The position numbers and the translations under genes are program-made. This document shows positions 5,680-57,400 of a stretch of DNA of 64,000 nt, in pieces. The DNA lies in assembly GCA_050084515.1 (NCBI GenBank), contig CM114271.1, positions 25,296,001 to 25,360,000 of the forward strand. Reading direction: 5' to 3'. Within the stretch, counting starts at the first letter, position 1; the number at the start of each line of letters is the position of its first letter. The notes beneath the pieces are model-generated. The model did no database searches and was not told where the DNA came from. It saw only the letters and a program-made list of their open reading frames with translations. Origin of the DNA: Blasia pusilla (lineage: Eukaryota).

Positions 5680-6052
<373 letters not shown>

Positions 6053-16489: not shown

Positions 16490-18775
16490 TAAAATAAACC
16501 TCAAAATAGGACAAAGAAAAGTAATAAAAACTTAAAAGAGGAGTCAAAAAATGCAAAAAAGAATGCAAAAAGAAAATGGCAACAAGCCAACGCAAATGCC
16601 GGCTCAACAAGCTACACCATTGATAGCCTGAAACAAATCTGACAAGAACACGAGTGGTTGGTCAGACGTGAATGGACGACAAGGCGAGCAACCCCCCACC
16701 ACCTCCGCACGACGTATCAATGCCAAGGCTTGTGCGCGTTGTAAGGCCGCTAAGATGCATTGCCGAAAATAAGTAGTAACTACCGAGAGAGAAGGACTAC
16801 GGGAAGGGGCAAGGTGATGATTCTCGAGGGAGTGTTGAGCACATGTTTTCACAAAAGTATCAAAAGACACATATAAATGACCGAATACTTCCACTGCAAA
16901 AGTAATAAATCATCAATCGCATATCTCACAACATAACTTAACTCCTTGATTCTTGCTGCAGCTTTGGCCGCCAAACCTTTGGTATGTGCGGCTCGACACA
17001 CCAAGTCAGAACGTGTTGGATCAGCAATCACCACATCACCTAGTGTCCGGAATCCACCTCGAGACATAACAAGATCCTTTCTCTGACGAGAGGTTGCTTG
17101 TGTGGTTGAAGGTAGGACATGGAGTTGCTCTTTCCCAACGGTGTATCTTGCAGTATGAGCCACCGATCCTACCGCCTCTCTCATGACATCATGTGTGGCC
17201 GTTTGGTCTCCACCATGTGCACATCGGAGAGGATAATATGGATACCCTTGGCATCAATGGGATCCCTGCATACATAATTTGGCACACCTAAGAGAGAAGG
17301 ATGGGGAAGTCTAAGACGTAACCGCAAAGCTGTCAAGAATATACTTCGAGAAAGACGAAATGGAAGAATAAGAGGATTTCGAGTAAGTCACGCCCCCGCT
17401 CCGGTACCCGCACATGAACGTAGACGAGCTCGATTAGCATCAGAGGATGCCTCGAAGAGAATGCTGGAAAAGTTGATTTGATGCAGATTCTCGGAGATAT
17501 GCTCTTGAAATCGATCAAGCCCTTCCGTAATGAGTTGACTATAAGGGGATAGAATTGGTTGTGTAGCAAGAGGAAGAAGAGCTCGTGCAGATCTCAATTG
17601 TTGTTGAAATAACAAGTCTCCCTCCTCTACACAAGCGATATGATCCATCAAGATAGGTGTATCTTCTTGGAAAAACCTTGAAGCCATAATCGGTGCTACC
17701 AACGCCCAACTCCCCAAAAAGGCTGCGGGAGCAGATGCGACTGTGGAGGACAGTCCCACCCCTCCAAAAGAAATAGGCAAGATAGCCTGTCGTGAAGCAA
17801 AGACAACATCCTCTCCCTCAATGGTATTCGGGCCAAGAATTTGACCAAAATTGCCAAGATAGAAGCATCAAAAGAGGCCAACCGATGTAAGAACCTTGAA
17901 GTGGGAGGACAAGTGTGAAGAAGGTAAGAAGGACGTCGTAGAAAACATTGGGAGAGAATCCCATAAGCCACTTGGGGATCCCCTAGATGAGGTAACAAAT
18001 GAAGCCATTCCACGTCTTTCAAAAGGGACTATAATGTGAGTGTCATCAGCAATGGAAGGGAAAAGACAAGATGGAAATACTTGCGCTGATGCTTGAAGGG
18101 CACAAAAATGGGCAATGGCAAAGAGTGGGCCACCCATGAGATCACCTTGACGTGTGCCACAAGCCGAATGTAGAATACTATATTCCCCATAAGTAGCATG
18201 ATGGGAATAGATAATGGGCGTATCATAGACATAGAAGGAGCGAAAAAATAGAATGAGGCTCTCGAGTTGTCCTCCTACACAACGTAACTCCTCAAAGATG
18301 GCCGCACGAGAAACTGAATTGAATGCGTTAGCCACATCGACTTGAATTGCTACCCAATGTGGATGAATATCAAGAGTGGAGCGAATCCCATGCACTACAG
18401 CCTCACAACCTCTAGGAGTTGCCACTCCAAATTGATGAGGAAATAAGTAGGCACTAAAATGAGGATGAAATTGCAAGCATAGGGATCGACTAACCAAGCG
18501 GTATAAAACCTCTCCAATAGCCAAAGGGCGCACACCTGAAAGAGGCTTATCCATAGCCAACAAACGACAAGCCCCTAAGAGCCTAGAGATAGAGAATGGG
18601 AGACGACCTACCGGCATATGTGCACACACCTTATATAGAGAGACAAAACCACTTGTTGAATCTGTTGGGATAAAAAAATCCCAGAGATGCTCTAAAACCA
18701 TCCGTGATAGCCCCCTTGCTAAAAAGCGAGGAGTATGCAGAAAAGCCCTTGTGAAAACCTCCAAGTTAGAAGAAA
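16490..18775 (-). mobile_element. 5'-truncated, frameshifted CRE-like non-LTR retrotransposon (RT, Zn knuckle, restriction-like endonuclease)
   Basis: RT motifs RPLAIGEVLYRL, QFGVA..GCEA, VDVANAFNSVSR, GTRQGD..G and IADD; then GGVGL; a Zn knuckle (C.DPIDAKGIH...LRCAHGG....HD); RLE-type motifs RKDLV...DVVIADP...KE..Y; and C-terminal ALQRAQA. Confidence 0.85.
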
Positions 18776-21700
18776 AGATTTCCCCGTAACTCCTTACACC
18801 TTATCCATATCAACAGACCTTATCTATTTGAAATTTTCTTTTAGAAGAAGTGACTTTAGAAAAAAAGGATATTTTTGAAAATAGTATATTCACACTTTTC
18901 AATATCAGAATAGTTCATATGAATTCATCAAAATTGGACCTTTTCTAACGTTCACTTATATTTCAACACATGTTTACAACGCTCTCATTTATTTTAATTT
19001 TTTAAATCTATGAAAACCCATTCGTATAATGATATTATGCGTAGTGTACATGTGGCACGGAAAACTCCTCAGGCCCTCTTTATATTACAGTATGAGAAAG
19101 ACGGATATCTTTTTCGATACTTTTATTCTCTAAAAATGCAAAAGCAAGATATGTTTTAAAAAAGAGGTGCGCACTTGTCGAGATGGGAGTGGTTTATTTG
19201 AACGTCTACATAAAGATTGGACCTTTCCTTAACATCCATGCAAGCTTCCTGCACAAGTCGACAACTCTTTGGTAAAATTGAAGATTCCAGTTAGCAGCCA
19301 ATTCTACTACACATAATAGAAGTTAGAACGAGTGAGTGCATGGCAGGGAAGTTCATTAATCGAGGTACGGAATAAACAGAGCGTAAGGCCGCAGGTGCAT
19401 CGCGCGAGCTCTAGTACCACTCTTAATTCTGCGCGAATGATCACTCATTTCGACGACGGGGGCCATGGTATGACGAGGTTATGATGACCGTTTCTCGGGG
19501 GTCGCTCAGCCATCGACAGTTTCGCTTTCTCTCGGGGATTTGATCCTTGGATTCTTGGAAGCGTCTTCACTCTTCAGGCGGAGAAGTCTCGTTTCGAATC
19601 GGACCGCTCCCGTCCAAGCGATTTGTCAACAACTGCCTCGTTCCCGTTTCGTCCCCATCCCCCATTTGTGAGCGCTCTTCTTTCATCGACTTTCAGAGGG
19701 TGAAATTGTCTCTCTTTATTCGTCGCCCCCTCCTATTTGACCTGAATTTACACGGCGAATGGATGGGAGGCTTCCATAGCTGTCATCGTACTGGTGGGGA
19801 CAATTTAAGGAGATTCGATCACTCCTTTATTTAGCCACGGCCTTCTGTCAGTAATAGCTATAGGACGGAAATTATTTTATGAAGTACATGTGCAAAACGT
19901 GGACGGTAATTTTTCCGTCATGTGGATATGGGCTACTGGTTTGCGTAGGGCTTTTTCATTTATTCGCGGTCTCATGCTTCAGTTACTTACTTACCTGGAC
20001 TCATCTCTAAAACCACCAACGGCAGCGAGTTACGAACGGCCCGCATGACCTCTGACTAGGGACTTTAGAATGGTGCCAGTGCCATATGCAATATACGGGT
20101 GATGTTTAAAACTACATAAAAAATAAAGATGCATTTCGATAAAAACGTGTGATGGAAAACCCATCGGAGGACTAAAAAAGTCAAAACACGAAGACCAGAA
20201 AAGGAAGAAGGGGGCATTCCTCCTCGAAATGCATCATTTTTAAACATCATTCTTCCTTGCCCCTAAAGACCCGTTACTTGAATGCCCCCCTCCCCCCTAG
20301 CCTTCCCCATTCTAAAGCCATGTTAGTTGAAAACCCCTCTCCCCCCTTACTCCCTCCCCTACCATGCCACATGCTCAATTCTCACGTGTGATCGTGTCGC
20401 CACCGAAAACCGCTCTTGTGTTAATAGTATAAATGTGTCAATATAAGAAGAATTCAGATGATGTCAATACCATAGGAAGGTTTTTTTTAATATTATCTTA
20501 TTTGAATTGTATAAATTATTAATACAAGTAGGTATTTTTCTTTTAAAAATAAAAATCTTACATCATCAAAAATCCATACATCCATGCAATTTTTTTTTGT
20601 ACAAATGGTTCCTCTCTTTATTTCCATGTATCCTTCTTTATTTTTTAAAAAATTTGGGTTTTATTTATTTCTTAAAGTGATGAAAGAAAAGTGGAAGGGA
20701 ATGAAATATTAGAATAAAAATATGAGAATACTACTACCATGAGGGAGGGAGTGAATGAATGAAATATCAAGCTCAGATGGGGTCTATTAGGTAAAGGGAA
20801 TACATCTCCATGCCAATGGGAAGGAAATCTAAATCAAGTCTTGGTGGCATTGTGGGAGCTTTGCATCTTTAATGGAGTTAGCATGGAAGAAAAAAAAAAA
20901 TGTGTTTATGTGCTGTTGATTGGGGCGCTAAAATGTTTGTAGGGTTTAGTGTAAAAATCAGTGTTGATATCGAATGTCAATAGGTCCGATACGATATTAC
21001 AAATAAAATCTTTATTTTAATATTAAAGTGAATCAAATATTTTCAAGCAGGAGTTTAATTTTTATTTGAGAATAGAAGGAAAAAAAATAGTACCCATATC
21101 AATGTCCGGGGAGAAGCGGAGTTACATGTTGAACTAATCGGAAGAATTTGAAAATTTCCGACTCAATTTCCCAATTATCGGCCAAAAACAACCTCATAGA
21201 CAGGTTCTCCTTTGTATGTGCATATGATTAGCCCCTCAGAATGAGTAAAAAAAACAAAATATACCGGTTCAAAAAGAACTACCAGGACACTCCTTCATAT
21301 TCGAGTATGATAGTCTAGATACCTACTCCATTATAATATAAACTAGTGAGAATGCCCGTGCGATGCACCGGCATCAAATTTTACACTGAAATAAAATTTT
21401 AATTTATTTTTAAGTAATAACATACGTCCGATTTCACACCCAACCTGCGTGCACTCAGATTCGAGCATGCGACTTCCAAATCCTCTGGCCTTCAACCCAC
21501 GAACGTTCCACACTGTCCACCATGGCCGGTAGACGATATAGTCTCTACTTATAAGATCCTATGTGATCCTCAGAAGAAAGTTTGTAAATTAATAGCGTGC
21601 ATGGGACTTTCTTGTGTTCAATCCAAAGGACTTCCAGGAATACACTCTCCAACCAATGAAGAATATGACCCTCTCCAACCAATTTTCCCACCTTGGCTCT

Positions 21701-30220: not shown

Positions 30221-32917
30221 CTATGTACATCTGGGGCACATCCATCCTCCCCGAGAAACCCTAGTGAGAGCTAGTGTCAGACATGCCATATGCCACCCTC
30301 TCGAACACCCATCACAAAACAGCATAGTGGTTCTACCACGGGCGGAACCACACAACATACATCCCAAGCCAAAAGGAATTATTGCTAAGCTCGGATCAAC
30401 TGTACCATCAATGTTAGGAAGATGATATGGCGCAAAACAATGTACATGGTCCTTCTAAACCATACAATCACGTCCCTCCAATAAGAGAACATCATATGGC
30501 AGAATCTCACACACTCTCAAGATGGTGCGCCCCGCAGTCACATCCAACATTGTGGATGCCGTCTGCTCCAAGTAGACATAGTCTTCCTGATGGAAACTCC
30601 GGATAGTCAGTCGATAACCATCTCCCCGAATAGTCGCACACCTAAACGTATCCCGATGCTGCAAGATTTCCAAGTTCTCAAACGCCATGGACATCACTCT
30701 CCAAAACAACTAAGCTCTCTGAGAACATGCTCTCATCCATAGATCAGGGTCATCAAGGTTCAACATCTCACCAACATCTCGACCATAAAGCAGCAAGTAC
30801 GGTGAGAAAGACGCTAAGGATGCCTGCCTGCTGAATCTGTATCCCATCGCCAACCACGGTAATTGGAGGTCCCAATCTCCTAGGTGACCTCTCTACAAGC
30901 CATACTTGCGTAATCCTCTCTTCACCATGTGCGCAATCCTCTCCGCTAGTCCATCCGCCCTAAGATGATCTCACGAAGTGGTGAGGTGGTCGATCATTGC
31001 CTGATCACACTAGGCCTGAAACTCCCCACAAAACTCTATACCCTGGTCTATCAACACCTCAACTAGTATGTCGTAATGACTCAACAGTCAATCTAGGAAG
31101 GCATATGCTACTCCCTCACTCGTTTTTTCAGGCAACGCAACCAACTCTATCCACTTCGAGAAGTGCTCGACCATCACCAACACATAATGACTATGGCCCT
31201 TCGTCAAAGGTAAAGGTCCTCAAAAATCCAAACTCCATCTATAACCTAAACCCGTGAAAGGAAGTGGATGCAACTATGGAGTCGGAGCATTGAACGATGC
31301 TCAGATCCGATCACACACCATGCACCTAGCAACAAACTGTTGAACGTCTGTCTGCATGCCTCGCCACCAATACTGTATCTGGAGCAAGCTATACATCAAC
31401 GTCACTCCAAAATGACCCAACTCCTCGTGGGTATGATGCATCGGACGTGCTCTCTGTGAAGGATGAGGCACTACATGCACTCTACCATCCTCCCAAACTT
31501 GCAATATATGTGTCCCCTCCCACCGGAACCGTATGGCTCGTTGGAGGATCCGATCCTGCTCTCTAGCACCCACTAAGCTCGTGACGTTGCCAGTACGCAG
31601 GTACTCCAAGACTACTCCATTGTCATGAATATCTCAGCCACGTGTCATCTCCTCACTAGCCTCTAGATCTAAGGACTCTCCATCAGACCTCGCCATCAAA
31701 GTCTCAACAATCTGACTCTCCATAATCAGCAAGCCCAAATAGGATGACGAGTGCCATCCTGGCACCAACTCGTCATCACTCTCACCATGCCAACGAGCTC
31801 CAGTCGCATCTCGCTAACTCGAGTATGGGTTACGGCTCAAACCATCGGTATCCTGGTTGAGCATCTCGGGTCTATGCACCACGTGGAAGTCATACTTCTG
31901 CAACAAAAGAGCCTACCTTGCAAGCTTCCCTGTAAGCTTGTCGTACTCCATCAAGCACATAAGTGGCTGATGATCCATAATAATGGTAAAGGGATTGCCA
32001 AATAAATAACACCTGAAATGCGCGATAGCCCACACTGCAACCAAGCACTCACCCTCATACGAGCTATACTTCACCTCTGCAGTGTTGTTCGAGCGACTAG
32101 CGTAAGCCACTATGAATCCTATACCCTCATTGTCATGCTAGGTGAGCACGGCCCCAAGCCCCAACATGCTCCGATCGATATGCAATTGGAAAGGACGCCC
32201 CCTGATCGGTCTCCTCAATATGGACGCGGACGTCAACCTGTCCATGAGCAGCTGAAATGCTCTCACCTGCTCATCCTCCGAGAGCCACTCTTGATCCACC
32301 TTGGTCAGCAAGGTTAGCGGCTTTGCAATCGAATTGAAACCCTTGACGTACCATCGATAAAAGTTTGCCAATCCCATGAATGCAGGAACTTGACTCACAT
32401 TTGTAGGGCGTGGAATGCGTGAAATAGCCTCTACCTTTGTCTGATGTACACCAAGGCCCCCTAAGTATATGGTATGACCCTGGTACTCAATCTGGTCGTA
32501 GAAGAACTTGCACTTGTCTGGATGTAGCTTCAGCCCATGTAATTGCAATCAATGAAACACCTCGTCTAGATGTTGCTCATGCTCCTCAACCGTGGCGCTA
32601 AGGACTACGATGTCACCAATTTAATACCTAGCAAAATCCACACTTGCCAAGATTCTATCCATGACCCTCTGAAACTCAGTCGGGGTGTTCTTTAACCCAA
32701 ATGGTAAGAACCGCCACTGGTACAAGCAATCCTTTCTGTCAGGATCGATGCCCCAAAATACCATCTTCTGCATATCCTCCAATTTGATAGGCTGCTGATG
32801 GTATCTGGCAAGACGATCTAACGACCTGAAGACCTTTGCATGCCCAATCGCATGCAAGATCTCCTTATGGATGGGTATGGCATACTTATTTGACTTCGTC
32901 TGCTGTAGTGCCCACAT
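30221..32917 (-). mobile_element. Ty3/Gypsy pol remnant: RT, RNase H, integrase and C-terminal PHD finger
   Basis: RT (LPFGLKNTPTEFQRVMD; LKLHPDKC), RNase H (AYASRSNN.AE.KYSSYEGECL.AVW), IN Zn finger (HEELGHFG...C.VC) and core, then CMLC-x11-CDGC-x4-H-x2-C...WMCPRC*. Domain order RT-RH-IN defines Ty3/Gypsy. Many stops and frameshifts. Confidence 0.93.
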
Positions 32918-32919
32918 TT

Positions 32920-35320
32920 TTGAAATTTTGATAGAAAGATCATTTTTTGTACAGAGTTGTAGTGAAGTCTTCCTTGAATGAAGACTAAAGACTCAATATT
33001 GGAAGTAAAGATGTATACTTTATAGAAATTGTGTGAAAATATGGAATGACAGAACTGTAATGAAAGGACAAGAGATAGTAAGAGATTAAAGACTGTCTTG
33101 GAGGAGTGAGAATTGTGTAAAAGTAGGAAAATACTAGAAAAGAAGTTAGAGTAAGAAGCGCAGGTACTTCACAAGGAAGACCGCACTCGGAATATTGATG
33201 AAGACCGTCAACGAAGACTGTAAAAGACTTCCTCTTTACAGTAGAAGATGGAAGGGAGTCTTTGTGTGAAGACTAGGTACAAAGAACGAAGACCCAAGAG
33301 CAAAGACTAAGAGATCTAAGAAGGAAGGGGAAGAAGAAGAAGAGGAATCAAAGAGTCTTCATAGAGCGGGAAAGTGTATGAAGAATAGGAATATAAAGAA
33401 AAAGAATTTTTTGGAAGAAGGAAAGAAAGTCGAACCAGGATTCTTCATGGCGGCAGTAGGATAAGAGTCTTCGCAAAGATAAGATTGCGAAGATAGGACT
33501 GCAAAGATAGGACTGCAAAGAGAAGATTGCCAGGACTGCGAAGACTGCGAAGACTGTAAGTAATGAACCGTCGCGGCGGTTTCAGAAGCCGAGAATGGAG
33601 CGACGCAACGGTTCAAAAGGAAGCGGAAATGACTCGCCACGGCAACCAACCGACCTAGAGGAAGTGAAGGATTGGAGAATCTGAACCAAGGAGGGTAGGA
33701 TTATCAGTAAGACATATAGAGTAGAATAGGAAGATCAATCAAGAATTATAAGAGATTATTTAAAGAATAGAGAAGGAGAGCAAGGGGTCATTCCCTTGTA
33801 TCTTGAGTTTCCCAATAGTCTTGGTGGGTTGTGTAAGGAGTTCTTTAGAGATGATCCAACTCAAAGAGTCTTGTACCCTCGAAGCTTGTAATACTTTCTA
33901 GTTCTTTCCACTCTTTGATGTAGCTGAAGTGTCTTCTCTTATGCTTTTTGATATGCGGAGTTGAGTGTAAATGCTTATTGGGCTGCAATAAGGATGAGAG
34001 TTGAGTCTTTTGATAAGAGGATTCTAGAAGATAATCAGGAAGAGCGTAGGAAAGCTGTTAAATATTTAGTAACCTGTCGTGACAGATTCAATTCTGAAAG
34101 TAGGATGAGCCGTTCATTCTTGAGGTCTCTTTGACATCATCGTTAGAGCTTTGTTATTTAAGATTCAAAAGAGTCTTTGTCTACACTTGAGAAGAGTCTT
34201 TTACAAGAGGGAAGAAAACCATTTTTGTTCATTTGTACTAGTGAAGACTTAGTTATTTAAGTTAGTTCAGTACTTAGTGAAGAAGGATTTATTCTTGTTA
34301 TTTCTTATCAAACCTCTCTTTCCTCAGGAAACGGTGATCTCTTGGGAAGGAACTTAATACTTTGCGAATAAAAGAGTACCTTTTTCCTTGGGTTGTACAT
34401 TACATAAGGAAGTAGGTAAGGAAATTTTGGCATTGTTGCCGAGAATCACAAGATCTTCCGAGCAAGAAGAGGTAGCGAGAGAGTGGGGTATGGGAGTAGA
34501 ACAAGTTGCCGGACCCCCACTTGGTGTAAGACGGGTATTGCTTGCGGAGGATCATGGTGCACAGAGGGTATTGTGGAATTAAGCAGCTTATCCAAAGAGT
34601 CTTCATACCCATGGAGTGGAACTTTTCGTGCTGGGTGAGGCGCTTGGCAAAAAGATCCTTGGAAGTTTTGGATGGATCGGCAAAGAATTCTTAAGACGGG
34701 CAAGCAGAGAGCCGAGCAACAAAGAAGAGAAAGAGAAGAGCGACGTGCCTGGAGACCGCCAAGGACACCTGTGAAGAATCGTTCCGCTCTTCGTCCAAAG
34801 CCTCCTGGGCGAAGACGAGAAAGGAGGAAGTCACCTTCTCCTCCTGATTCACCGGCGAAGAGAGACCGAGAAGAGGATGGGGTCCGTCCAGCCCCAATAG
34901 CTCAGACAGAGAGAAGGATCAAAGTACCACAGGGGACTTGCCTTCCCCATCATGTGGCGGAAGTCCTCTCAGTAGCGAAGATAACGAAGTACCGATGGCG
35001 CACTAACACAAATCGCTGCTGAGATATCCCACCTTTTATGGAAGCAAGCAAGATGATGCGGATGACTTTATTATGGAGTTTACCCATGTAGCAAAGGCGA
35101 ATGGAGAAGGATCTTCTTAGAGTCTATCCTGGACTCTTAAAAAAGCGTACCAGTTAGTGGTATGAGGGAATAGAAGCGGAACACCTGCAAACTTGGGATG
35201 CCCTACTTAAGGCGTTCCTTCATGAGTTTCGGGGCCTGGAATTTGACGATTGCCTACTTACGAAGTTTCGTGATCTCAAGAGAAGGAAGAAAGAGTACAC
35301 TCAAAGATTTTGCAGCTCTG
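32920..35320 (+). mobile_element. 5' part of a second LTR retrotransposon (LTR/UTR-like region plus truncated gag)
   Basis: 35030-35310 reads PTFYGSKQDDADDFIMEF...WYEGIE...QTWDALLKAFLHEF...EYTQRF (retrotransposon gag motif). The upstream purine-rich region with aagactg repeats is LTR-like; no PBS identified. Confidence 0.7.
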
Positions 35321-38299
35321 AGGTGGAACTTTTGGAGAAAAAGGACCTAAAACGACCCCTAGATATAGAGGACGTAACGACGAATTGCCGGGGCTAAACC
35401 GTGCTTTCCAAATGCCCCCGGAACCGGTGAACGGACCAAAATCACGGACGTGGACTCATGGACGGTATCGGGCCCGGTTCAAATGGCTCGGAAACGGGGT
35501 CCCTGCTGGAAACGAATCGCGGACACGGACGCGTGAGTCACACGGAGTCATGGACCGTCTGTTGCGAGACAACCGGCGGTTGGAAGTCCGTGGTATCATC
35601 TTTCGAGCTCCGCGCTAACACACTGCTGGTGTGTTAGCGCGGACCTTGAACAATAGTACGACCGGCGTGATCGGCGCGATGTCAAATAGCCTTCCCAGGT
35701 GGGGCCACCGACGTGGCAGTAGGGTGAGGTGAAAACGCGTCACAATTCACCGCACCGGGAAATAAAAAAGTGGGTCGTGCTGGCGTTCTGTGCAAGTGAA
35801 GCCGGCCGCCATATTTTAAAACTTTCCGAATTCCTATCCGACATTGTAAGCGAATTCACGACGTCGAAAACATGTGTTTTGTCAAATTAAAAAATCGTGA
35901 ACACAGTCCGAAGATAGCCGTCAGGAAGAGCCCGGCGATAGGACGCAGATCCGATCGTCGTAGAAAGTTCGGTCATCCCTACCTTAGGATCCTGGACCTT
36001 CCGGGCCCCAAGGTAGGGAAATACTTGGGATGGATGAGTGGCCGAGCAACAGCGCAAGGAATACCTGCCGGCGCATCCGTCAGGCCTACAGCCTGCCGTG
36101 CCGGACTGGGGGAAACCAACAGTCAGTATGGGGCTTCTGTTACTTTTGTTTCTCCGAGAGCTCAAAAATACGGATCGGACGTTCAGCCGATCATGATCCC
36201 GCTAGTACGATAGGTGACGAGAGAGTAAAAGAGTTTCAGGGACACATTCATTCTTGCTTTTCGGGAGTAATTTGCAAATTTTCGCTCTTAGGATTCTCCC
36301 CTGTTATGGCGGGTCGTGTGCGGGGGCCGTGTGAACACCCTCTTTTGCTGGGACCGAAATCCTGAAATCCGGCCGCCGTGTCGAAAAGCTACTCAGAAAG
36401 ATACGTATGAACAGCAGCGGCGCGTAGTTTTTCCATGGAAGAAAAACATTTGTAAAGGTTTGAAAGTCAGATATGTCATTTAGATTTTTTCCCAATTTGT
36501 TGTGACTAGGGCCTTTTCCATGAAAGCAAGCACTGAACTGCGGAGCGATCGATGGATGAACCATGGTTTAAAAGGATCCTTCTAACCGATATAGCACAAT
36601 ATCTCTGCCGGCGAATAGTCAAATGCCGGTTGTGGGACTTATGCAATAGTGTTTTACTTATCACTTTTGTACTTAGTTTCTATATTAAACACGGTCAGGG
36701 GTTCTCTCCGAATCAGGCAAAGAGAACCTTTCTAACATCGGAGTGCTCTGAAGTCTGGCTGCTTTTGGAACTTTCATGAATACTGTAGAGCAGGCACTCG
36801 ATCTTGTCTTGTTGTCAGCCTTGTCCCAAAGGGCTCGAAAGTCGCCCAAATAATGTCTCTTCCAGTTGAAATTCGGTGCAGTGAACTGTGACGATGTTTT
36901 GATCCGTGGGTAGCAAGGATCCATGAGAGCAAGAAATGGTGGGGACGACGAGGGACTCTATTCGCAAATAAATGAAAGGGTGAGACGAGAATCGGCTTAG
37001 AAGTTGCCTGAGGAACCTGTGCCTTGATACAATCCTTGTGCTTATTGGGACGAATTTAGCAATGGTGGGACACGGAATAGGTTTTGGTTATGATTGTGTT
37101 TGTCAGAGTTGACGGCCCGCAGTGAACGAAAAGACGCATGTGCCTAGGTCACACGACACATGCTAAGGCCTTCTCGATTTCACCTCTCTGAATCGACGAA
37201 ACCAAATGGTTTTTTTGTGGGGATCAATGTCCACCGCCGTCTCCCATGAAAATTTCAGATTCATGGGAGACCAGTAATTGTGGTCTACACAAACATGCTT
37301 CGTTCGCGCTGCGCCTGATGATCGAATGCGTGGGGGTTGGGTTTGGTCGGCTGCGCTCGACGAGTGTTCTCTCGCCAGAAAGATCGGTGAAGAATGTTCA
37401 CCGAGAGCATCGCCATGATTGCCAACATGCTACCAGAGGTATTGAGGGTCACTCGGTGCATGACCACCGAGGGTTTGCGATCGACTGGTCAGGCGCTGCC
37501 CGATGTGCAACACCAGCGCGCAGCGACAACTGTTGAGACACGAGCACTTATTCGTTCGGTCCATCCCGCGTCTGGAACCGGACAGCTTTCCTCGAATCTG
37601 GAGCCCCTTCCCTCGTGACAACCATACGGAGCATCGGAGACGCTTTTCAAACACACCCGGACTTGGACTCAACCATTCCGTGTTCGCAACACCAGCACTC
37701 TTTGTAAACAAAATTCAGGAATATTAGATTGACACGTATTTGAAACTTTCGAAAGCTTTCATACCTCAATCAGGAGTTTCCTGTCACATCTTAAAATTAG
37801 TAAATTCCCGAGTCTTGTGCCTGCTCCCTCAAGCAAGACCGAGTTCTGTTCCCTTAAGACTGGGACGCAGCACTTCGCGTAGGACTGGGAATCTGGGATG
37901 GAGCGCGTCAGAAGCACTTCACATAGGACAGGGATGGAGAACTGGAACGTGATCTCTGCCGGGACTCCATTTTTACTGTTAGCTACGATGTTTCCAGTTC
38001 ACCGAGCGATTACTCCATGAAACAAACCTCTCAGCCTTCAAACCTTCATTTCCAACGATTTCCAAAAAACGTCACGCATGAAACACCTTTCGCACTTCGT
38101 GGACCACTATTTGAGTCCTCCTCTAGGACGGGTTTAGAGAATCCTTCCTCCCGCTTTTGACACTTGTCCTACGAGGGTTCTTATGGGGTTGACGCGTGTA
38201 AATTTAAAGTTGAAGTGAATGAGCAGGGAAGGGGAGGAGGGCTGGCGATGAATTATTATTATTTTTCAATTTCAAAATTGTTGTACGTGCATAGCGCGG

Positions 38300-41200
38300 G
38301 CAGTACTTTAGTCCGCAGTGATCCTTGCACGCACGCACATGAAATTCCGGAGCTCCCAGCCAACAACTCCACGGCGTCACACCCACACACATCATGCCTC
38401 AATGAACGCCTTTGGACGATCCGTGTTCACGACAAGCGTTTCACTGGGGACTTCGTCGCCCACCGACCGATGGCCACAGCGCGGATCGCATCTCAAGGAA
38501 TCGGACACGGCATCTAGCGAAGGCATCTAGTAGCAGCTCGCGAACGACGATTCGGGTGCCACAATCTCTATCTTACTAAGATAGATCTTACTAAGAGAAA
38601 ACAAACCATGGTTATAGGCATTGCTTTGTTGTGCCACAATCTTTTAGGCTCATTTTGACCCAGTTGAACTGTTGCTTTCACATGAAAGCGAATCTCGAGT
38701 GTGTTCCAGCAAGCATGCTATCCATGGCATGCCGGGCTTGGGAAGGGAAACAAGTGGATTGGGCCACATATGTCTATCGCAAGCTGATGCTTGACATCAA
38801 AGGGGTATAACGACCTAGAGCGAAGAAGGAAAAACAGAGAGAAAGCGGAGTGGGGGTGTTGTTGACCATCTTATTCAACCACGGGGATGAAACGCCTGAG
38901 GTGGTAACCGTTGCAGTTGCAAAGCTCATCGCCTTCCCTGATGGAACACGACCCGACAGCCGATTGGGGCAAGGTGATGGTAGTACTGCACAACAAAATC
39001 CGCATGAATTGCAACTGAAAGCTACAGGCCGGGCAGTTACTAGGGCTAAAGGAAAACGCGCATGCGATTCAGCTAGGGCTTCTAATGATCATGAAGAGAC
39101 GTCAGGACCTCTGTTCATAAAACTGAAAATTCCAGAGAGGAAAAGAAATGCGAATGTTGATGTCCATCATGAGAGAGTTCCAGATTCTGAGGATAATTCT
39201 GACTTTGTGTCTCCCCCGCACAAAGCAAGGAGGAAAAAAAAGGCGCATAAGGAAGATGGAATGAATGACACCCTGCGCCAAGAATCTAATTCCAGCAAAG
39301 TAAGTTTTTTCATTCTTTGGACCTTTCAGATAAGAGCTACTTCGTTCTTTTCGACAAATTTTCACAGCTTTGACTAATGTCAACTCTCCCTCCACAGCCT
39401 TCAAAACGTCAAAGCTCAAGTTTAGTGTGCAAGGGCATCCAGAGTGGGGTTGCATCAGAGGAGCAGGTGTTATTATCCACATCCTTCTTTCTACTGTATA
39501 ATTCTTTCATTGCGGCTATTTCTTCTCGGTTATTCACAGTTGCGGATGATTTTTTATTTATCATGGCTACTTTCACTTCATGGTGGCTATTTAGAGTTTC
39601 GTGAGTTTCAGTTTCCTTCGGTTACTTTCCTCTCCTGCTGGTTGTTTACAGTTGCGGATATTTACACTTGGTTGCGGTTATTCTCGGCTCAAGGCGGCAC
39701 TTTACATGTTCTTGCCGCTAAATTCAGATTTGATTTTGTGAATGGTTTGGTTAGGGGAAAGGGCCAAATGCAAGGCCTCGACGGCCTAAGTTGACAATAA
39801 GCAGGTTGGGTATCACCAACACGGTGCCGAAGGTGGAGTTCCCGCTTCTTGAAGGGGAGAAGGCATATGATAAGCACATTGCTAGAAAGGTGAAGGAGGA
39901 AATCACCCCTGTAGATGGTGGTGGTGCTCGTGATTCTAGACGAGTACTTCAAACCAATGTAGAGAATGTAGTACAAAGTCAAGATGCTATAGTTGAGGTG
40001 CTAGACGAGTTAAGGCAAGAATTGAAGGAGAAGAGAGCAAGCAGGGAAGAGAGAGATAGAGCAGCAGATGTCATAAATCTGGATGGCAGTGATTCAGATG
40101 AAGACCTTGGGAAGGCCCCGAGTTTGGCTATGTCCAGCCCTCATGTTCCAGCTTCACCTACTGGAGATGATGGAGTTCAACATACCAACCAGCAAGACCA
40201 TACTATTGACAATCTGGAGTGGCCATCACAGGCATTTGCAAGTATTGCAATGTCAGATTGGAATACGCAATGACTTGCAACATCAGGAACTTGGGATCTT
40301 CCTACAGAATCCCAATGGGGTCCGGGGGGATGACGCAGAAGCACCTATAGAGGGAGGCAAGAAAGAAATTTTTTTTAAACCTACAACAGGCACTCCAACG
40401 GACGCTACAACTGAGGCAAGGGGAGAGGACGGACTTCCACAGAGGAATGAAAGAGAGGGAGTTTCGAAGCCAACAAATGTGAAAACACTATTAGTGGACT
40501 GAGATAGCCAAACAGCAGAGACGATGCTTGTCGGTAGGGGTTCTCAAACGGCTGATCTGATCATGATTGAAAGGGATGTGCAAACGTTTCATGCTTTGCT
40601 CATCACGAGGGGTTCTCAAACAAATCAGGCACACCTCATCAATAGATTATGCCAAACTGAGATTGTTCTAACACTGGATCAGGGAGTGCAAACATGCGAA
40701 GCGAGTGGAGAACGGCTCATGGTCACCCGGGGCTCGCAGTATGAGGTTGTACAAGTGGTCACTCGTCTTTGCCAGACAAACACCATCTATTCTCATGATC
40801 AACAAGTGCAAACGGAATTACATCCCATCGTGCTAGATGGGTATACTCAAACCGAGGGTCGTTACTTCTCATATTATGATGATATTGGTGGTGTCAAACG
40901 AAGACCACCATTGCTAAGTGAAGAGTATTGGTACTCAGGTGAAGGGGTTGAGGAGAATGGTGGTTGTGAATGGCGGTTAATTAACCTGCGATCGAAGGCA
41001 AATCGTTCAATACCTGGAAATATCATGGACCCATCTTGTCCTGAAGGCGTGTATGTTCCATCTGAGAACTTACTTGGCAGGAGAGTTCGAGATACGTCCG
41101 CAGCAAATGATGGGAACGCACACTTTGAGAAAGTTAGTGGAGAAGATTCACATGAACCATCAACCACTGAGGTGAAGAAATTCATAAAACTCATCCCTGA

Positions 41201-42520
41201 CCTGAAACGATTTATAGTTGAATATCACTTGTGCTTACGGCTACTTTCCAAGGAGTCCAGATCTTGGCTACTTTGTGTGGTGGCGGCTATTTACAGATTT
41301 CTATGGTGGGGGCTATTTATTGATGTTACTTCTGGTTAGGACCTACTGCATTGTGGCTATATTAAGGAGTCCAGATCTTGGCTATTTTGCGGCTATTGAC
41401 ACAGAGCATGACCTTGTTTATGGTTTATGTAGAGTGCTAAGCTAGTCATTGGTTCTCATAGAAGATTGTTGTTAATGTACATGGACTCCTATTTCTATGG
41501 TGGCGGCTATTTACAGATTTCTGTGGTGGCGGCTATTTATCGATGTTACTTGTGGTTAGCTCCTACTGCATTGTGGCTACATTAAGGAGTCCATGTCTTG
41601 GCTACTTTGCGGCTATTGACACACAGCATGACCTTGTTCTTTTCTGGTAGATGTAGAGTGCTTAGCTGGTCGTTGGATACATAGTAGATGTACATGTACA
41701 TGGACTCCTGTTTCTGTGGTGGCGGCTATTTACAGATTTATGTGGTGTATTGATGTTACTTGTGGTTCGCACCTATTGCATTGTGGTTACACTGTGGTTG
41801 AGATAGAGCGTGTTTCGTCAATAAGACATCTTGTTCTTCTGGGTAGGTAGAGCTTTGTTAATGTTTTATAGGGGGCAGCGGAGCATATTTACAACACCAA
41901 GGTCTATTTGCATGTACATGCTGGATGTTGTAGAGGTAATCTGAGAGTGCTTATGAGGGCCCTTGCGGCTATATACAGTTACCATTGGATTGCCACAGTA
42001 CTTACGACAATGTGTACTCCTCATCTCGGTTGTGGGGTCTCTTGTGCAGGATACCAAGGAAGAAAATGATCTACCAACTTCATCAATACAACAAAATGAA
42101 GCAGAGGTTGTTGATGAGCGGATATTCCAACTCTGCATGGAATATGTAGGTGTGAAACCGGAACATTCCTTGCATCTACATTGCTGGGAGGAAAAAATTG
42201 ATCGAAAGGAAAGAAGCTTGGCTAGACTAGACAAGTATTTAGATGTTCTTGAAAATAGACACACAACTTTGATATGTGAGAGGGAGGAACTATACTCAAA
42301 CCTAGGACTATCAGGTTATGACTCGGCAGGATTATGGTTGGAGGCATTGGAAAGGGTATCCGGCATGAGAGAGTCTATTTCGAGGAGTTCAGCATTTCAC
42401 AGTGAACTCTTTAAGATGTTAGGAATCTCAACAGAAGAAGGAGACAAGGAATCCGCCCGAGCAAATGCTCTTAAGGAAATAGGGGGATTGAAGAGACTTG
42501 CTGAAAGTCCTGCAAGGTGA
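38300..42520 (+). pseudogene. Multi-exon TE-associated gene: plant-transposon-protein-like N-terminus, coiled coils and a QT-repeat array (lesioned)
   Basis: 38590-38880 reads NHGYRH...CVPASMLSMACRAWEGKQVDWATYVYRKLMLDIKG...VGVLLTILF, like accessory ORFs of plant TEs. Phase-0 splice junctions at 39299^39398 and 41171^42050 join open frames. In-frame stops (e.g. 40500) and frameshifts present; junctions near 39.5-39.8 kb unresolved. Confidence 0.55.
41270..41830. repeat. ~220-bp imperfect tandem triplication within a putative intron
   Basis: tggtggcggctatttacagattt...gatgttactt.tggtt...cctactgcattgtgg occurs at ~41278, ~41498 and ~41717. Confidence 0.85.
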
Positions 42521-43200
42521 TAGTACATCATTGTATACAATCTAATGTTTTAATACACGTTTTTGAGAAATTTTTGAGGATATATGTTTCTGTGTGCATA
42601 TTATCCCCAAGATTCATGGGTGCTACATTTAATGAGCAACATTTGACAAATCTATCCTATTTCTCTTTAGTCGCACTCTATTTCTCTGTAGCCGCAGATT
42701 CTCTATAGCAAATAGCTCACAATGACGGTTGTTCTAGCCACTCTGTATTTAGCCGCAGCTCTCGATTCAAGCTCTGTAACACCCTACATGCGTCGTCGCC
42801 CTAAAGTCTTTTCCACATGATCACCTCCGTCTCCTACATGACCCTCGAACAGACCCCTCCATTAGGAATGATAATACTCTCAAACTAAATTATATTTACG
42901 TATTTAGACGCAGGTTTCTCTTGCGGCTAAATAATTGTCTTTCCCGCCATTTTCTATTAGGTGTCATGCCTCCTACTACCTACTGCGACCACGCGCTATG
43001 AGAAAAACACCGATTCTGCCGGTGCCGACACAAATCCTTACCTGCTGGAGCTTGTAAAAGGGCCTCTTAAGTGAAAATAGTTGGGGTGGGGCTGCCCTAG
43101 GCACAAAAGATCGATTGGGGGCCGCTTAAGCGAATAGCTCGAAAATCGTAGATCTCAATAGGCGAGAGTTTAAAACCAGATACATACTTTCAAATAATGA

Positions 43201-45129: not shown

Positions 45130-46620
45130 TACGAGAAGGATCTTCATACTCTTGAAGCTCTAATATATATTGAGGGTCTTCACTAAAAGGCACAACATGA
45201 AGCAGATCGAGTAGACGAAGATTATGGTTATTTTATTCAATTTTTCTTTTTGAACTTGGAAACACCTAGATTTTATAATCAAAGACTCTGCCTTGGTTGT
45301 TTCTTGGATGCCTCCAAAATAAGATATGATATCTTTTTCCTCATGTGAGACTTCTCGCGTTTGTTGTGACTTCAGCAATCCAAGATCAGCAATTGCAATT
45401 AGGAGTAAATAAGACGTGCAATATCACTCATAATATTCCCCAAAATTCCAAGTATGAAGCATATCAGTTATCCCAAAAAAAGATTTATGATAAAAGGACA
45501 CTACCAGAGATAATAGCTTCAAGAGCCTTTCTCAACCTCTCATTTTCCTCATGCATAAGTTCATAAGGGTTCCCAAGAAGGTCCTCCTCAAGATTTGAAT
45601 GTGTGTCATCGAGCGACTCTAAAATACTCTAATCTGATGTACTTATCCAATCCCGCTTACATATTTCCTCTCTATCATTGATATATACAATTACTCTTTA
45701 GCTTAGAGAGTTTCGTCTTCTCATCCATTGGCCTTAAGAAAAAGGCAGATACAGGTCCCCCTTGATTGAACTTCAAGAATCTAGTAAACATGCCAAGCTA
45801 CTCATACCCCTCATTGGACTCTTCATTCAATGAGCCAATTTCTGAACATACATCTAGAACGGCTACACTGGCAAAGTCTCTACGTGCTATGGCCATTTGC
45901 TGACCACTTAGCTCTATGGCTCCAAGATTATTCAATATTGGAAATCTATCAGGCGAGTGCATAGGAGCCTCAAGACCACAATAGCTTTCATTATCCCCAT
46001 AGTTGAAATTAGACTCCTCTGCAAATACTTGGCATTCCCTAGCTTATGTTTGCAAGACCACTTTCCACCCACTTCCTTCACTAGCATCACGAAAAAAATA
46101 CTTTGCTCAACTTGAGTAGGTTTACAAGGAAAAATTTTAAACATTTGGAATGATGGTTTAAAAGTTAAAGGTTACAATGGAGTTGCGCTTCCGTATTCCT
46201 CGCCATCATCCCAAACCCATATCCTCAGACTTCTGAAAGCCTCAAATATCTTCATAAATTTTGTAACAAATCCCATGGCCTTATCCTCAACATAACCTGA
46301 TGCCATATATGAATCCCTTTGATTGACCTCTTATCTCACATCGTAATTGTTCTCATATATCTTTCCATCGGGTACATCCATCGACATGCCACTAGTCCAC
46401 AAGTATCAAGCTCTTATACAATATGGATGAGTAAATATGTCAAAACATCAAAGAACGTACGAGGGAATTGTATCTCTAATAGACACAAGGTCACAAGAGT
46501 ATCTTCGTAGATCCTCTCTAGTTGGGATGGATTACAGACTTTGACATATGAGCTTCTCATGACCTTACTTGATCTCATGATAGTCATTCACACCTCTTCT
46601 TTCATGAGTCCATATAAGGA
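45130..46620 (-). mobile_element. CACTA/En-Spm transposase remnant (DUF4218-like region)
   Basis: TLCLLEIQFPRTFFDVLTYLLIHIV*ELDTCGLVACRWMYPMERYM, plus downstream YFGGIQE; heavily degraded. Confidence 0.85.
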
Positions 46621-46647: not shown

Positions 46648-48960
46648 CGAGGTTGCACGGAAATGGATTAGTCTATCTATGGGACAGACATGTCAAAGTG
46701 AGCCCCGACATGGGTCTTTTTGATGCCCAAGTTGCCTACACGGGCTCCAAATGCGCAAATAGGTGTTGGCCAAAGAGTTACAGACATGCGGCAAGGTTGC
46801 ACAAAAACATTCAAGTTAGTCCATGGGATGGACATGCCAAATCGGTCCCCCGCCTGCACCTGAGCCCGCCCGTCGAGCCCGTCAAGCTCGTAACATAGAA
46901 TTGGTCTTGGCCAATCTACACCCATTTTAGCATGCATGAAGCCCACGCGCGGCGATCTTAGGCCCTCGGTCTGTGCAGGCCCTACGGGGGCTTGAGCCCG
47001 CCAAGTGGGCCTTGTGCGGCTCAGACGCGGGTCAGAACTCACCCAATGGGAGCCCAATCTTCCCTATAGGCATGTCATAAGCTACACATGGGCTTCATGT
47101 GGGCTACAAAATAGGTACGGGCTGGCCGAGCCTGGATGTACATTACAGGATCAACGTGCTCGAGAGCAGGCCATGGGTACCCGGACGCGCATGTACATGT
47201 TTGCCTTAGGGACGGACATTAGTCTGTGGACACAGACTTTATTCATGTGCAACCTTGGCATGCGGTTCGCGAGTCTTATGAGGACCAAATGTGGGTCAGG
47301 ACCGTGCAAGCTAAGTGTGGGGTGAGCGCAACGCAGGTTGGGCTAGAGCCCACGCATTTAGGGTTGAGTGCGGGCCTTCTGGGTCTAGAGCACGTTGGGT
47401 TACGGCCTAGATCAAGCCCGTGCAGGATGGAGCGGCCTAGGCTAGGACCCATATGGGCCAGGCGCATGCTGGTGCGGGCTGATGCGGGTCGCTGCAAGAA
47501 GAGTGCTGGCCCCACTGGTTGCAAGCCATCCGAGTGGATGCAAGCGTAGGCTCGGGCAAGGTTGGGAGGGTGGGGGCCCTAGGGTTGGGTTTGGGCCTAA
47601 ACGCGGGGCACATACAGGATCGTTTAGGGTCATTTGTAGGTAGGGACTCTAGTGGTAGGTTCCAGAGGCCATGTGATTTGTATTTGGAGGTGGAGAGGAA
47701 AGGCGAAGATTAGAGTGTAAGTGAATAGGGTGGTTATGTTAGTGGATAGGTTAGTTGCAAATGAAGTTGGTGAAGAAGTTAGGATGATTGAAAAAGGATT
47801 GGGATTAGCAAAATAATGCAAAATATGATTTGCTACATGATTACTAGTGGAGTTTATTCAGGAATTAATAGTAAGTGGAGGTAGATTAGAAAAATGAATT
47901 AAGGGTTCATTTGCTTCCTTCCATGCTCCCCTACATCAACTTGCTCATTTCTAGTATTATCTCACAATCTCATTCCTCTCCCCATGTCTCCCTCTCTCTA
48001 CTCTTTCTTCAAAGTTTATTTCTCCACAGATAGATGAACTTGATAAGTGAGTATATGTTTTGCCATTGGATAACCTTGATAATTTCAAGTATCTTGGTTA
48101 TCTAGATTAGCATATTGATGTTTCTTGTTCATAATGAGTGTTCCAAGGTTTCTATTGGAGGATTCACGGACAATATATAATGTAATTTTCATATCCTTCA
48201 CGGTCCAAGTAATAGTCTCAATGAATGCAAAGGGGTAGTTAGGTCGAGTCGGGCAACGAGTAGTATTGGAAAGAATCAAGCTGATCTAAGGAATTCTTTC
48301 AACTTCCAAGGAGTAGAAGTTGCAAATGACACGTGGGAAAAGTGTTTCTATGAATGAGGAATATCATCCAACATAGTACGACAAGATGCTTTCAAGAAAG
48401 AAGTGTTGGAAACAACAAAGGTGAAGGGCCACTCAAGTCCTAGTTACAATTCCTTGTGCACTACCATTCTACTTGAGAAACGTATGGGGAAGGTTAAGGA
48501 AATAATTGATTCTGTATTGGATAATTTGGGTTTGGGAGCCACCATCATCACAAATGCTTGAATCAATGTGAGGAGCGAATCTTTAGTGAACATCATGGTC
48601 TCGTGTCCACAAGGTGAGTTCATAATCGAATCTATAGACACAAAAGGAGAATCCCAAGCGGTTAAATGGTTGGTAGATCACTTAGAGAGGACTATCGTGA
48701 GTATAGGTCCAAAGAATGTGTTGCAACTTGTGACAGACAATGCTAGCAATGAGCGAGCAGTGGGGAAACTTATTGAAGCAAAGTTTCCTCACATACTTTG
48801 AGGTGGATGTGTATCACAATCTTTTGATCTCGTATGTGAAGAATGGGATAAGTGGCCTTGGGTGGATAGAATTTTTGTGCGAGCTCGTGAGATGGTGGTA
48901 TTTGTGAAGACAAGAACTTGGATAATGGCCAAATTCATCGTTGTCTTTTAACAATAATTT
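46648..48960 (+). mobile_element. hAT transposon 5' part with DUF659-type transposase remnant
   Basis: TIR cgaggttgca at 46648 and a GC-rich subterminal region. 48540-48920 reads NIMVSCPQG.FIIESID...IGPKNVLQLVTDNASN..AVGKLIEAKFPHI..GCVSQSFDL. Interrupted at 48961. Confidence 0.88.
46792..47257. mobile_element. hAT-type MITE (466 bp) nested in the hAT subterminal region
   Basis: TIRs caaggttgcac...gtgcaaccttg; TSD acatgcgg/gcatgcgg (7/8). Confidence 0.85.
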
Positions 48961-56239: not shown

Positions 56240-57400
56240 TTGCAACAATCCATAGCTCTTGCCTTGTCAAGTCGAACATGTATCCTTAACAACAAACTTG
56301 AGCAACTAAGACATAGGAATCCCAACTTATCAGACAAAGATATTTACTCTCAACTGTCCAAATATAACTTTAGTGCCCAGATCCCAGGGAGCCCATCCTT
56401 GCACCGTCGCCACCTACGAGACTTGAAAGCTATGGTAGCTAAGTGGGAGATGCCCGATTTATTCTTGACGCTAACGTCAGACGAGGTATCAAACAGTAGG
56501 AGGCAAGAAGTCTATGATATTGAGCATCTAGGACATAAGCTCAACCTAAACTTTTCATGGAGAGATGCTCCAGTTGAGTGCATAGTTTTATTCCATACCA
56601 GATTGAAAATTTTCTTCAGCAAGTATATACTATCCAACCCACATATTCTTGGTTGAGTCAACAATTACTTAATTCGTTACGAGTTACAAGGTAGGGGTAG
56701 TCTTCATTCATACATAATCTTGTGGATTGATAAAGACGACGTGGAGTAGATGGCTTCTGAAATATGCTGCTATATTCCCGGAGATGCAGACTCCGCCTCA
56801 AGTATTGGTCCTAACAGTGATTCAGTTGATAAGCTTCGTCATTACGTCACAACCAAGCAATTGTACAAGCGAAAGCAGGGAGTTTGTACAATTAAGGCAA
56901 ATTCTACCCACCCACCTTACTGTTGAATGGGATTCCCTACACCCCCAAGTTTTCACCTCGATCCATATATAGATAGTAAAACTCTGAAATGGATTTATTA
57001 CCAACGTGGAGACCGTCATCGCAATGTCATACCCTACCACCCAGTTGTTCTCCTATTGCGGGGCGCACACATGAATTTACAATGAGTAACTAATGTTCAA
57101 TGGTCCCTGTACTCGCTTAAGTGCGAGCCGCAAGGTGCAGTGAACATTACAACATAGTGTGCTGGGTGTCGGGGTTTAGAAGGCTTCTTGATGAGGTCAC
57201 GCTTAAGCTAATATTTGGGCTTGTACTAAACATACTAGTGTTGTCCACAGAGGCACCACTCACCTCCATCAAGATTCCTATCATTTTTAGATCGCAATCT
57301 ATCAAGTACATTGACTCCAACCCTCCATCCAAGAGGACTCATCTATATAAAAACCCTACAATTCTCTGCATACACCCAACTATAATCTATGCTCATCGAC
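56240..57400 (+). mobile_element. Degenerate Helitron Rep (HUH endonuclease) domain
   Basis: IPGSPS...DLKAMV..W.MPDLFLTLT (motif 1), RYELQGRGSLHSYIILW (motif 2), RNVIPYHP.VLL..GAHMNLQ and Y.LK (motif 3 remnant); stops and frameshifts present. Confidence 0.88.

Follow-up and report, generated by a model that had tools for sequence, protein, structure and literature searches.

Within a 64,000-nucleotide stretch of Blasia pusilla DNA (assembly GCA_050084515.1, contig CM114271.1, positions 25,296,001 to 25,360,000 of the forward strand; hereafter the window, numbered from its first base), one reading frame encodes an array of ten 12-residue units, each built around a Gln-Thr (QT) pair. This stretch is best explained as the central exon of a gene copy that is dead and belongs to a multi-copy protein-coding family. 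The residues that surround the QT pairs make the units putative docking strands for LC8 (DYNLL-type) dimers, a reading that we put forward tentatively and weigh below against its alternatives.

The frame of the array spans positions 40077-41339 and contains one stop, the TGA at 40500, after which 278 codons remain open. All ten QT peptides quoted in the original prediction were located in this frame (frame 0, plus strand; Table 1). The units start at 40485, 40521, 40557, 40593, 40629, 40665, 40713, 40749, 40785, and 40824, and their Gln codons at 40509, 40545, 40581, 40617, 40653, 40689, 40737, 40773, 40809, and 40848. Successive Gln residues are 12, 12, 12, 12, 12, 16, 12, 12, and 13 residues apart, with inserts of 4 residues after unit 6 and 1 residue after unit 9, and the mostly exact spacing claimed earlier was found in 7 of the 9 intervals. 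Numbering from the Gln (position 0), the unit consensus is hydrophobic at -7, -6, and -5, polar at -4, Arg at -3, Gly or another residue at -2, Ser, Val, Cys, or Thr at -1, Gln at 0, and Thr at +1. Val, Ile, or Leu occupies -5 in 9 of 10 units, and -4 is polar or small in all ten and never hydrophobic. Arg stands at -3 in six units, to which can be added the unit interrupted by the TGA, where reads from other copies restore an Arg codon. Position -1 is Ser in four units, Val in three, Cys in two, and Thr in one, and Glu is found at +2 in four of the ten.

Table 1. Features of the array locus, residues of the array by column, and other features of the window.
Feature	Position	Strand	Remark
Array of ten 12-residue units	40485..40859	+	Frame 0
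TGA stop within unit 1, in the Arg column (-3)	40500..40502	+	C in 15/18 whole-genome reads
Upstream exon-like frame	38661..39299	+	In-frame TAA at 38808-38810; GT at 39300-39301
Upstream part of the array exon, 172 aa	39755..40270	+	Frame 2; AG at 39753-39754
TGA closing the upstream frame-2 reading frame	40271..40273	+	C at 40271 in 13/15 whole-genome reads
Gly/Pro/Thr/Glu-rich segment before the array	40290..40484	+	Frame 0
Site of two extra bases	40323..40324	+	Both bases carried by 5/10 whole-genome reads
Segment after the array, 114 aa	40860..41201	+	Same frame as array; disordered side of charge-hydropathy plot
About 2.4 tandem copies of a ~220-base unit	41272..41791	.	Within an intron-like gap that follows the array exon
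Downstream exon-like frame, 156 aa	42050..42517	+	AG at 42048-42049, GT at 42518-42519
Array column -7	units 1-10		L M I L H L L Q Y I
Array column -6	units 1-10		L L M L L T M V S V
Array column -5	units 1-10		V V I I I L V V H L
Array column -4	units 1-10		D G E T N D T T D D
Array column -3	units 1-10		stop R R R R Q R R Q G
Array column -2	units 1-10		D G D G L G G L Q Y
Array column -1	units 1-10		S S V S C V S C V T
Array column 0	units 1-10		Q in 10/10
Array column +1	units 1-10		T in 9/10, Y in one (unit 7)
Array column +2	units 1-10		A A F N E C E N E E
LINE-type reverse transcriptase (RVT_1, E = 1e-9), 310-codon open frame	17868-18800	-	Probably a LINE remnant
PHD finger	30224-30454	-	Just downstream of the Gypsy pol, same strand
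Decayed Ty3/Gypsy pol: integrase zinc domain, RNase H, reverse transcriptase	31304-32992	-	
DUF4218 (CACTA-type) remnant	about 46344-46545	-	
DUF659 (hAT) remnant	about 48439-48892	+	
Helitron_like_N remnant	56240-56653	+	

The array repeats at the protein level

The run of six QT pairs at an exact period of 12 is unique in the window, and the longest such run in the other five frames is 2. Among all 400 dipeptides at periods of 5-40, the only other runs of at least five in the window came from a perfect (AG)51 microsatellite at 5880-5981. A chance origin of the periodicity is excluded. Tandem Repeats Finder (TRF) at a score of at least 30 found no tandem repeat in the array, and the ten 36-base units have a mean pairwise base identity of 41% (41%, 53%, and 30% at codon positions 1, 2, and 3, respectively), in agreement with the original prediction that the DNA is not a tandem repeat. 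The Arg residues at -3 are encoded by AGG (three times), AGA, CGG, and CGT, and the Ser residues at -1 by AGC, TCT, TCT, and TCG, in both cases two unrelated codon families. Since Arg and Ser have been kept through codon families that are two changes apart, and third positions are close to random, the array would have been under long selection as protein. The comparison of bases and residues, with Gln in 10/10 and Thr in 9/10 units, points to selection at the protein level, as had been proposed. Units 4-6 and 7-9 resemble a duplicated triplet (RGSQ-/RLCQT/QxVQT); the DNA alignment of units 4-6 with 7-9 gave z = 3.3 against codon shuffles, and the other two pairs gave 0.9 and 1.6.

The locus is a decayed copy of a diverged family

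Public reads of the same organism, from one whole-genome sequencing (WGS) run and three RNA runs, were aligned on 38000-43000 at a likeness of at least 80%. WGS depth was 1.4-2.1 in the three bins of the flank (38000-38500) and about 12.5 on average over the 26 bins of 38668-43000, reaching 16-18 over the array. Depth over the family is roughly 7-fold that of the flank, a rough ratio, as the flank is perhaps not single-copy and the sequenced individual perhaps unlike the reference. Among the 458 WGS reads, 14 were at least 99% alike to the locus, 143 were 95-99% alike, 131 were 90-95% alike, and 170 were below 90%. With only 14 of 458 reads at 99% or more, the locus belongs to a diverged multi-copy family. 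Depth was higher over the exon-like parts (16-18) than over the intron-like parts (5-9), and it was still 10-14 at 43000, where the region covered by reads ends. No second copy of the array locus was found in the window by blastn and tblastn.

In this copy the family sequence begins at about 38665, and depth rises from 1.4-2.1 to 20 at 38668-38834. Nine WGS reads extend upstream of 38671 into sequence that is foreign to the window, with a mutual agreement of 0.96, and these concordant reads indicate that this copy is 5'-truncated. The two TGA stops at 40271 and 40500 are both CpG-to-TpG changes, and other copies have the CpG context; at 40500 the single RNA read that covers the site also carries C. 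The suggestion that the TGA at 40500 occupies the conserved Arg position and derives from CGA is borne out by the reads of other copies (Table 1). At 40323, the two extra bases carried by half of the reads would join frame 2, from 39755 on, to frame 0 of the array, and in copies with these bases the stretch from 39755 to about 41200 would form one reading frame and one exon. The two TGA stops, a further in-frame TAA at 38808, the frameshift, and the 5' truncation together show that the copy in the window is a dead, 5'-truncated pseudogene.

Groups of 6, 9, and 15 WGS reads at 40203, 42223, and 42735, respectively, match the locus downstream of these points and diverge from it concordantly upstream. 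Family members are seemingly mosaic or strongly diverged at these sites.

Exon-like structure and flanking segments

The distribution of splice-type dinucleotides at the locus is consistent with a GT..AG exon structure. The GT at 39300 and the AG at 39753 enclose a gap of 455 bases, and the frames that adjoin it join in phase. The 172-residue frame that follows has a basic start and lies on the disordered side of the charge-hydropathy plot, as does the segment at 40290-40484, which contains 18% Ile, Leu, Val, Met, and Phe, and 6 Pro in 65 residues. The segment after the array was modelled by AlphaFold2 (AF2) mostly with a predicted local distance difference test (pLDDT) score below 50. The tandem copies at 41272-41791 are 84% identical over 314 bases and have a WGS depth of 4.7-8.9; the stretch looks like an intron between the array exon and the next exon-like frame. 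All three RNA runs have reads in 42175-42508, within that frame. No splice joint was seen in the RNA reads at the locus, which are too few to show one.

The array had been described as flanked by coiled coils. A heptad count, which is a crude home-made measure and no coiled-coil predictor, found coiled-coil-like stretches on either side, at about 39947-40030 (7 of 8 a/d positions hydrophobic) and at about 42188-42271 (6 of 8), in line with that description.

Transcription of the family

Each of the three RNA runs has 23-34 reads over the 5 kb, mostly less than 90% alike to the locus. Only about two reads, from one run, cover 40505-40671 in the array, and one of them has C at 40500. At 40626, G was found in 2/2 RNA reads and in 21/21 WGS reads. 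The C at 40500 and the G at 40626 indicate that the RNA reads come from another copy and not from the one in the window. First mates of the array reads map to the minus strand, as expected of plus-strand RNA in most stranded libraries. On this thin evidence, a family copy with an Arg codon at 40500 appears to be transcribed at a low level.

A block of about 90 bases within 38668-38834, at the 5' edge of the family, receives most of the RNA reads; all of these reads are less than 90% alike and clipped on both sides. The interval also has the highest WGS depth (about 20), and Pfam gives no family for it. It looks like a short conserved piece common to other, more strongly expressed sequences.

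Searches for relatives

A word-indexed protein search with the 278-residue frame among proteins of near length found no relative, and phmmer with the same frame gave no match at E <=0.001 against 1.84 billion representative proteins. Likewise, no relative was found when the upstream 71-residue frame and the downstream 156-residue frame were compared with longer proteins by the word-indexed search. Pattern matches in metagenome contigs (38) and in viral contigs (2) were not confirmed in any case, the ESM Atlas gave no usable match to the array protein, and the PDB sequences held no relative, the best hit (E 0.25) being an unrelated lipase. Pfam identified no family inside 38665-43000, either in the frames or in the read-through translations of 35400-43200 in all plus frames. 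From these sequence comparisons, the array family would be lineage-restricted or unannotated.

The units resemble LC8 docking strands

The optimal LC8 ligand selected by phage display is V-5 S-4 R-3 G-2 T-1 Q0 T1 E2, in which T1, T-1, and R-3 are reported to face into the LC8 groove and Val at -5 to raise the affinity twentyfold (PMC3078936). The consensus of the array units agrees with this optimum at -5, -3, -2, 0, and +1. LC8 sites are further expected to have Gln at 0 with mid-sized uncharged residues at -1 and +1 (PMC6607443), and the array has Gln in 10/10 units and Thr at +1 in 9/10. We coded the flank rules given in section 9 of PMC6607443 from its text rather than from the LC8Pred matrices: a large or basic residue at -3, non-hydrophobic residues at -4 and +2, no bulky aromatic residue at -2, and no internal Pro. 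All coded rules were passed by 6 of the 10 units. Of the others, units 1 and 10 failed at -3 (stop and G, respectively), unit 10 also at -2 (Y), unit 3 at +2 (F), and unit 7 at +1 (Y). Elsewhere in the window, over six frames, the rules were passed by 46 of 262 8-mers with [TSVIC]Q[TSVIC] and by 5 of 43 with [TSVIC]QT.

The pitch of 12 residues can be divided into an 8-residue motif and a 4-residue linker, with one linker of 8 and one of 5 residues. Published LC8 linkers are given as 1-41 residues, with a 3-residue linker supporting binding (PMC10046861), and the linkers of the array (4, 5, and 8) fall within this range. Linkers of 4-5 residues are described for Nup159, and KANK1 is described as binding at least 15 LC8 dimers on weak non-canonical sites separated by short uniform linkers (PMC12803091). 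LC8 was present in all 24 eukaryote genomes surveyed in PMC2239267, three angiosperms included. The same survey reports it as retained in Arabidopsis, Populus, and rice, from which dynein is absent, which agrees with the earlier statement that land plants keep LC8-like proteins. For an Arabidopsis LC8-type protein, strand addition has been proposed as the way in which a disordered partner is bound (bioRxiv 10.1101/2023.11.03.564551). The composition of both flanks, on the disordered side of the plot, and the heptad-like stretches on either side also speak for LC8 docking.

Taken together, the motif and its spacing suggest, with a confidence that falls somewhat short of even, that the units form an LC8 ladder. 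In intact copies the exon would encode ten modules able to form beta-strands at a 12-residue pitch, each of them docking, weakly to moderately, as a strand in the groove of an LC8 dimer. The flanking coiled-coil-like segments would bring two parallel chains together, and up to ten LC8 dimers could then zip both chains into a stiff ladder, in a mode likened to that of Nup159 and KANK1, where linkers are short and uniform and sites individually weak. Four parts of this model are inferred: the array protein would exist in the cell, would stay disordered while free, would dock with LC8, and would pair with a second chain.

Several observations weigh against LC8 docking, the first being the anchor itself. 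The motif classes quoted in PMC3078936 include [K/R]xTQT, and this class is not found in the array; TQT occurs only in unit 10, which breaks two flank rules. Of the earlier proposal that the units are candidate LC8 motifs, the agreement with the flank rules in 6/10 units stood, but the canonical TQT anchor, found in 1/10 only, did not. Because the canonical anchor failed in this way, we did not file the array as a member of the LC8 clients. The remaining anchors are four SQT/SQY, three VQT, and two CQT. In the peptides printed in Tables 1 and 2 of PMC6607443, the five with SQT comprise one weak binder and four non-binders, VQT is bound in 3/3, and IQT in 0/3, so that the Ser at -1 in four array units is set against printed SQT peptides that are mostly non-binders. 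Cys at -1 in two units is a further point of this kind. In favour of docking, by contrast, are the binding of the VQT peptides and the replacement of Thr by Ser, Ile, Val, or Cys that is described at known LC8 sites (PMC3392930). LC8 sites are described as lying in disordered regions (PMC6607443, PMC3392930). In the charge-hydropathy plot the array falls on the folded side (H 0.478 vs boundary 0.436), with 30% Ile, Leu, Val, Met, and Phe, and 1 Pro in 124 residues. Residues -7 and -6 make no contact with LC8 in the crystal structure described in PMC3078936, and the conserved hydrophobic residues at these positions of the array, which lie outside the LC8 footprint, are unexplained by LC8. Finally, the ten units share ancestry by duplication, and their likeness to the LC8 motif is therefore that of one motif copied ten times rather than ten independent matches.

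Alternative readings of the array

A self-contained beta-rich repeat domain with no need of LC8 is the main rival, and we regard it as only a little less likely than the LC8 ladder. Such a domain could be an up-and-down meander or barrel, or else a solenoid that has three sides and takes 36 residues for each turn, in which the hydrophobic triplet would form the core of the strands and R-G-x-Q-T the turns or a polar ladder. Its standing as main rival comes from the contrast in composition between the array (folded side of the plot) and its two flanks (disordered side), from the conserved hydrophobic -7 and -6 beyond the LC8 footprint, and from the super-repeat of units 4-6 and 7-9, which would fit a turn of three strands. 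It comes also from both AF2 models, where strands recur every 11-12 residues on the hydrophobic triplets and R-G-S-Q-T lies in turns, a placement that counts against LC8 docking as well. However, the AF2 models (mean pLDDT 38.5 over 233 residues and 44.2 over 113 residues) place the array below 60 throughout, with no residue at pLDDT of at least 70. As these were single-sequence runs, the lack of a confident fold is weak evidence. A purely structural repeat would also be untypical in having an invariant Gln-Thr, a near-invariant Arg, and a polar -4, which match the LC8 pattern exactly; the array has no relative by sequence in the PDB and none in Pfam, and the triplet order may reflect duplication history alone. 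LC8 docking explains the Gln, Thr, and Arg, the polar -4, the aliphatic -5, and the pitch, and a beta fold explains the composition of the array and its positions -7 and -6. A hexapeptide (left-handed beta-helix) reading was dropped, as no hexad pattern was visible by eye.

The units may instead serve another ligand or a modification, either as an SQ/TQ phosphorylation cluster or as a nucleic-acid-binding ladder of Arg residues, which we consider quite improbable. SQ/TQ clusters are phosphorylated by ATM/ATR-type kinases, and five of the ten units (1, 2, 4, 7, and 10) contain S-Q or T-Q. The pair that is invariant is nevertheless Q-T and not [S/T]-Q, and five units have V-Q or C-Q. Similarly, the recurrence of Arg every 12 residues and the basic stretch with which the array exon opens would suit binding to nucleic acid, but the array is net acidic (7 Lys and Arg vs 15 Asp and Glu).

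That the frame never coded for a functional protein and its periodicity is a relic of an old DNA repeat is highly improbable: the lack of a homologue in any library searched, the stops and frameshift of this copy, and an RNA support of only a handful of reads are set against near-random third positions (30%) alongside Gln in 10/10, Thr in 9/10, and Arg and Ser encoded by unrelated codons, against the 278 codons that are open after a single TGA, and against the WGS depth of 16-18 over exon-like vs 5-9 over intron-like parts.

Is the family a transposable element?

The array had been presented as part of an accessory protein borne by a transposable element (TE). The part of this claim that stood is the multi-copy family among TE remnants; no TE domain, long terminal repeat (LTR), or terminal inverted repeat (TIR) was found at 38665-43000. 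Whether the family is a TE with the repeat protein as its accessory protein is independent of the ligand of the array, and we consider it possible but doubtful. The multi-copy depth (about 12.5 over 38668-43000 vs about 1.7 over 38000-38500, with 14 of 458 reads at least 99% alike) is consistent with a TE, as are the truncation and the CpG-decay stops of this copy, and the loose read ends at 40203, which suggest that what precedes the array segment is not the same in all copies. The neighbourhood likewise carries Gypsy, LINE (long interspersed nuclear element), CACTA-type, hAT, and Helitron remnants (Table 1). Against this, no transposase, reverse transcriptase, integrase, or other TE family was found in any plus frame of 38665-43000, and the TE domains nearest to the locus lie outside 35400-43200 or on the opposite strand. 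Neither an LTR or TIR pair round the locus nor the ends of the repeated unit were found in the window, where the copy is 5'-truncated and its 3' end lies beyond 43000, and the exon-like layout bounded by GT..AG equally suits a host gene family or a captured gene fragment. A TE, a TE-captured gene fragment, and a decaying host gene family all fit the locus.

The block at 38661-38747 was considered as a named TE domain and dropped, without Pfam support. The DUF4218, DUF659, and Helitron_like_N remnants represent three DNA-transposon classes and lie within 10 kb of each other. The window also contains a diverged satellite at 10865-12651, with about ten copies of a 180-base AT-rich unit at 67% matches.

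Comparison with known systems and significance

In its layout, the array comes closest to the LC8 ladders of the Nup159 and KANK1 type. As these systems are described, yeast Nup159, human KANK1 L2, and ASCIZ/ATMIN have, like the array, many Gln-centred 8-residue strands in a row beside coiled coils. Their linkers are reported as 1-9 residues (4-5 in Nup159), and weak sites can still be cooperative (PMC10046861; PMC12803091; PMC3078936). Their arrays are described in polar disordered regions, and most ASCIZ and Nup159 anchors are given as TQT; in contrast, the array has TQT in 1/10 units, hydrophobic linkers, a near-perfect pitch, and no sequence homology to them or to any other known client. 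The phage-display optimum V-S-R-G-T-Q-T-E, reported to occur also in EML3, has Thr at -1, unlike the array, where -1 is Ser, Val, or Cys in 9/10 units. The N-terminus of Chlamydomonas RSP3 offers a row of TQT-like sites, some with Ile in place of Thr, that binds LC8 dimers in tandem (PMC3392930). Its five sites are 17-31 residues apart in a predicted random coil, and the protein is axonemal and not a member of a multi-copy family.

Among mobile elements, the Gag of Sireviruses (Ty1/copia) is reported to bind LC8-family proteins in plants, and so provides, as described, an earlier instance of host LC8 being used by a protein of a plant mobile element. Unlike in Sireviruses, there is no copia domain at the array locus, and from its published description the Gag case is apparently not a ten-unit array. 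The original prediction held that no such array was known in a plant TE. In the literature searched, no LC8-motif array in a plant mobile element was found among the matches listed, which agrees with that statement, yet the reported link between Sirevirus Gag and LC8 qualifies it.

For a self-folding repeat, short-period beta-solenoids such as the beetle antifreeze protein, with 12-residue coils held by disulfides, offer a comparison. The array shares with these coils a period of 12 residues and a Thr at a fixed position; unlike them, it has no regular pattern of Cys and no confident predicted fold.

Taken as a whole, it is unlikely that a plant gene family which is mobile or carried by a TE encodes an LC8 ladder more regular than any described so far, with ten sites at a 12-residue pitch, and borrows host LC8 dimers through it for its own dimerisation, stiffening, or trafficking. 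Should the array fold alone, it would be an orphan 12-residue beta repeat with an invariant Gln-Thr, a small structural curiosity. Whichever reading holds, the value of the pseudogene copy is as a pointer to intact copies of the family. If LC8 docking holds, the array mode is known in kind from the Nup159 and KANK1 ladders and the variant is new. Ten sites with uniform 4-residue linkers and mostly non-TQT anchors would then test the idea, set out in PMC12803091, that LC8 rods which are cooperative and homogeneous arise from weak sites with short, even linkers. In flowering plants LC8 is described as kept after the loss of dynein, with its partners there little known (PMC2239267; bioRxiv 10.1101/2023.11.03.564551). 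If such a mobile or TE-carried ladder is real, it would take the link between Sirevirus Gag and LC8 beyond one site to a complete scaffold and provide a natural ligand of high valency for plant LC8, of which hardly any clients are known.

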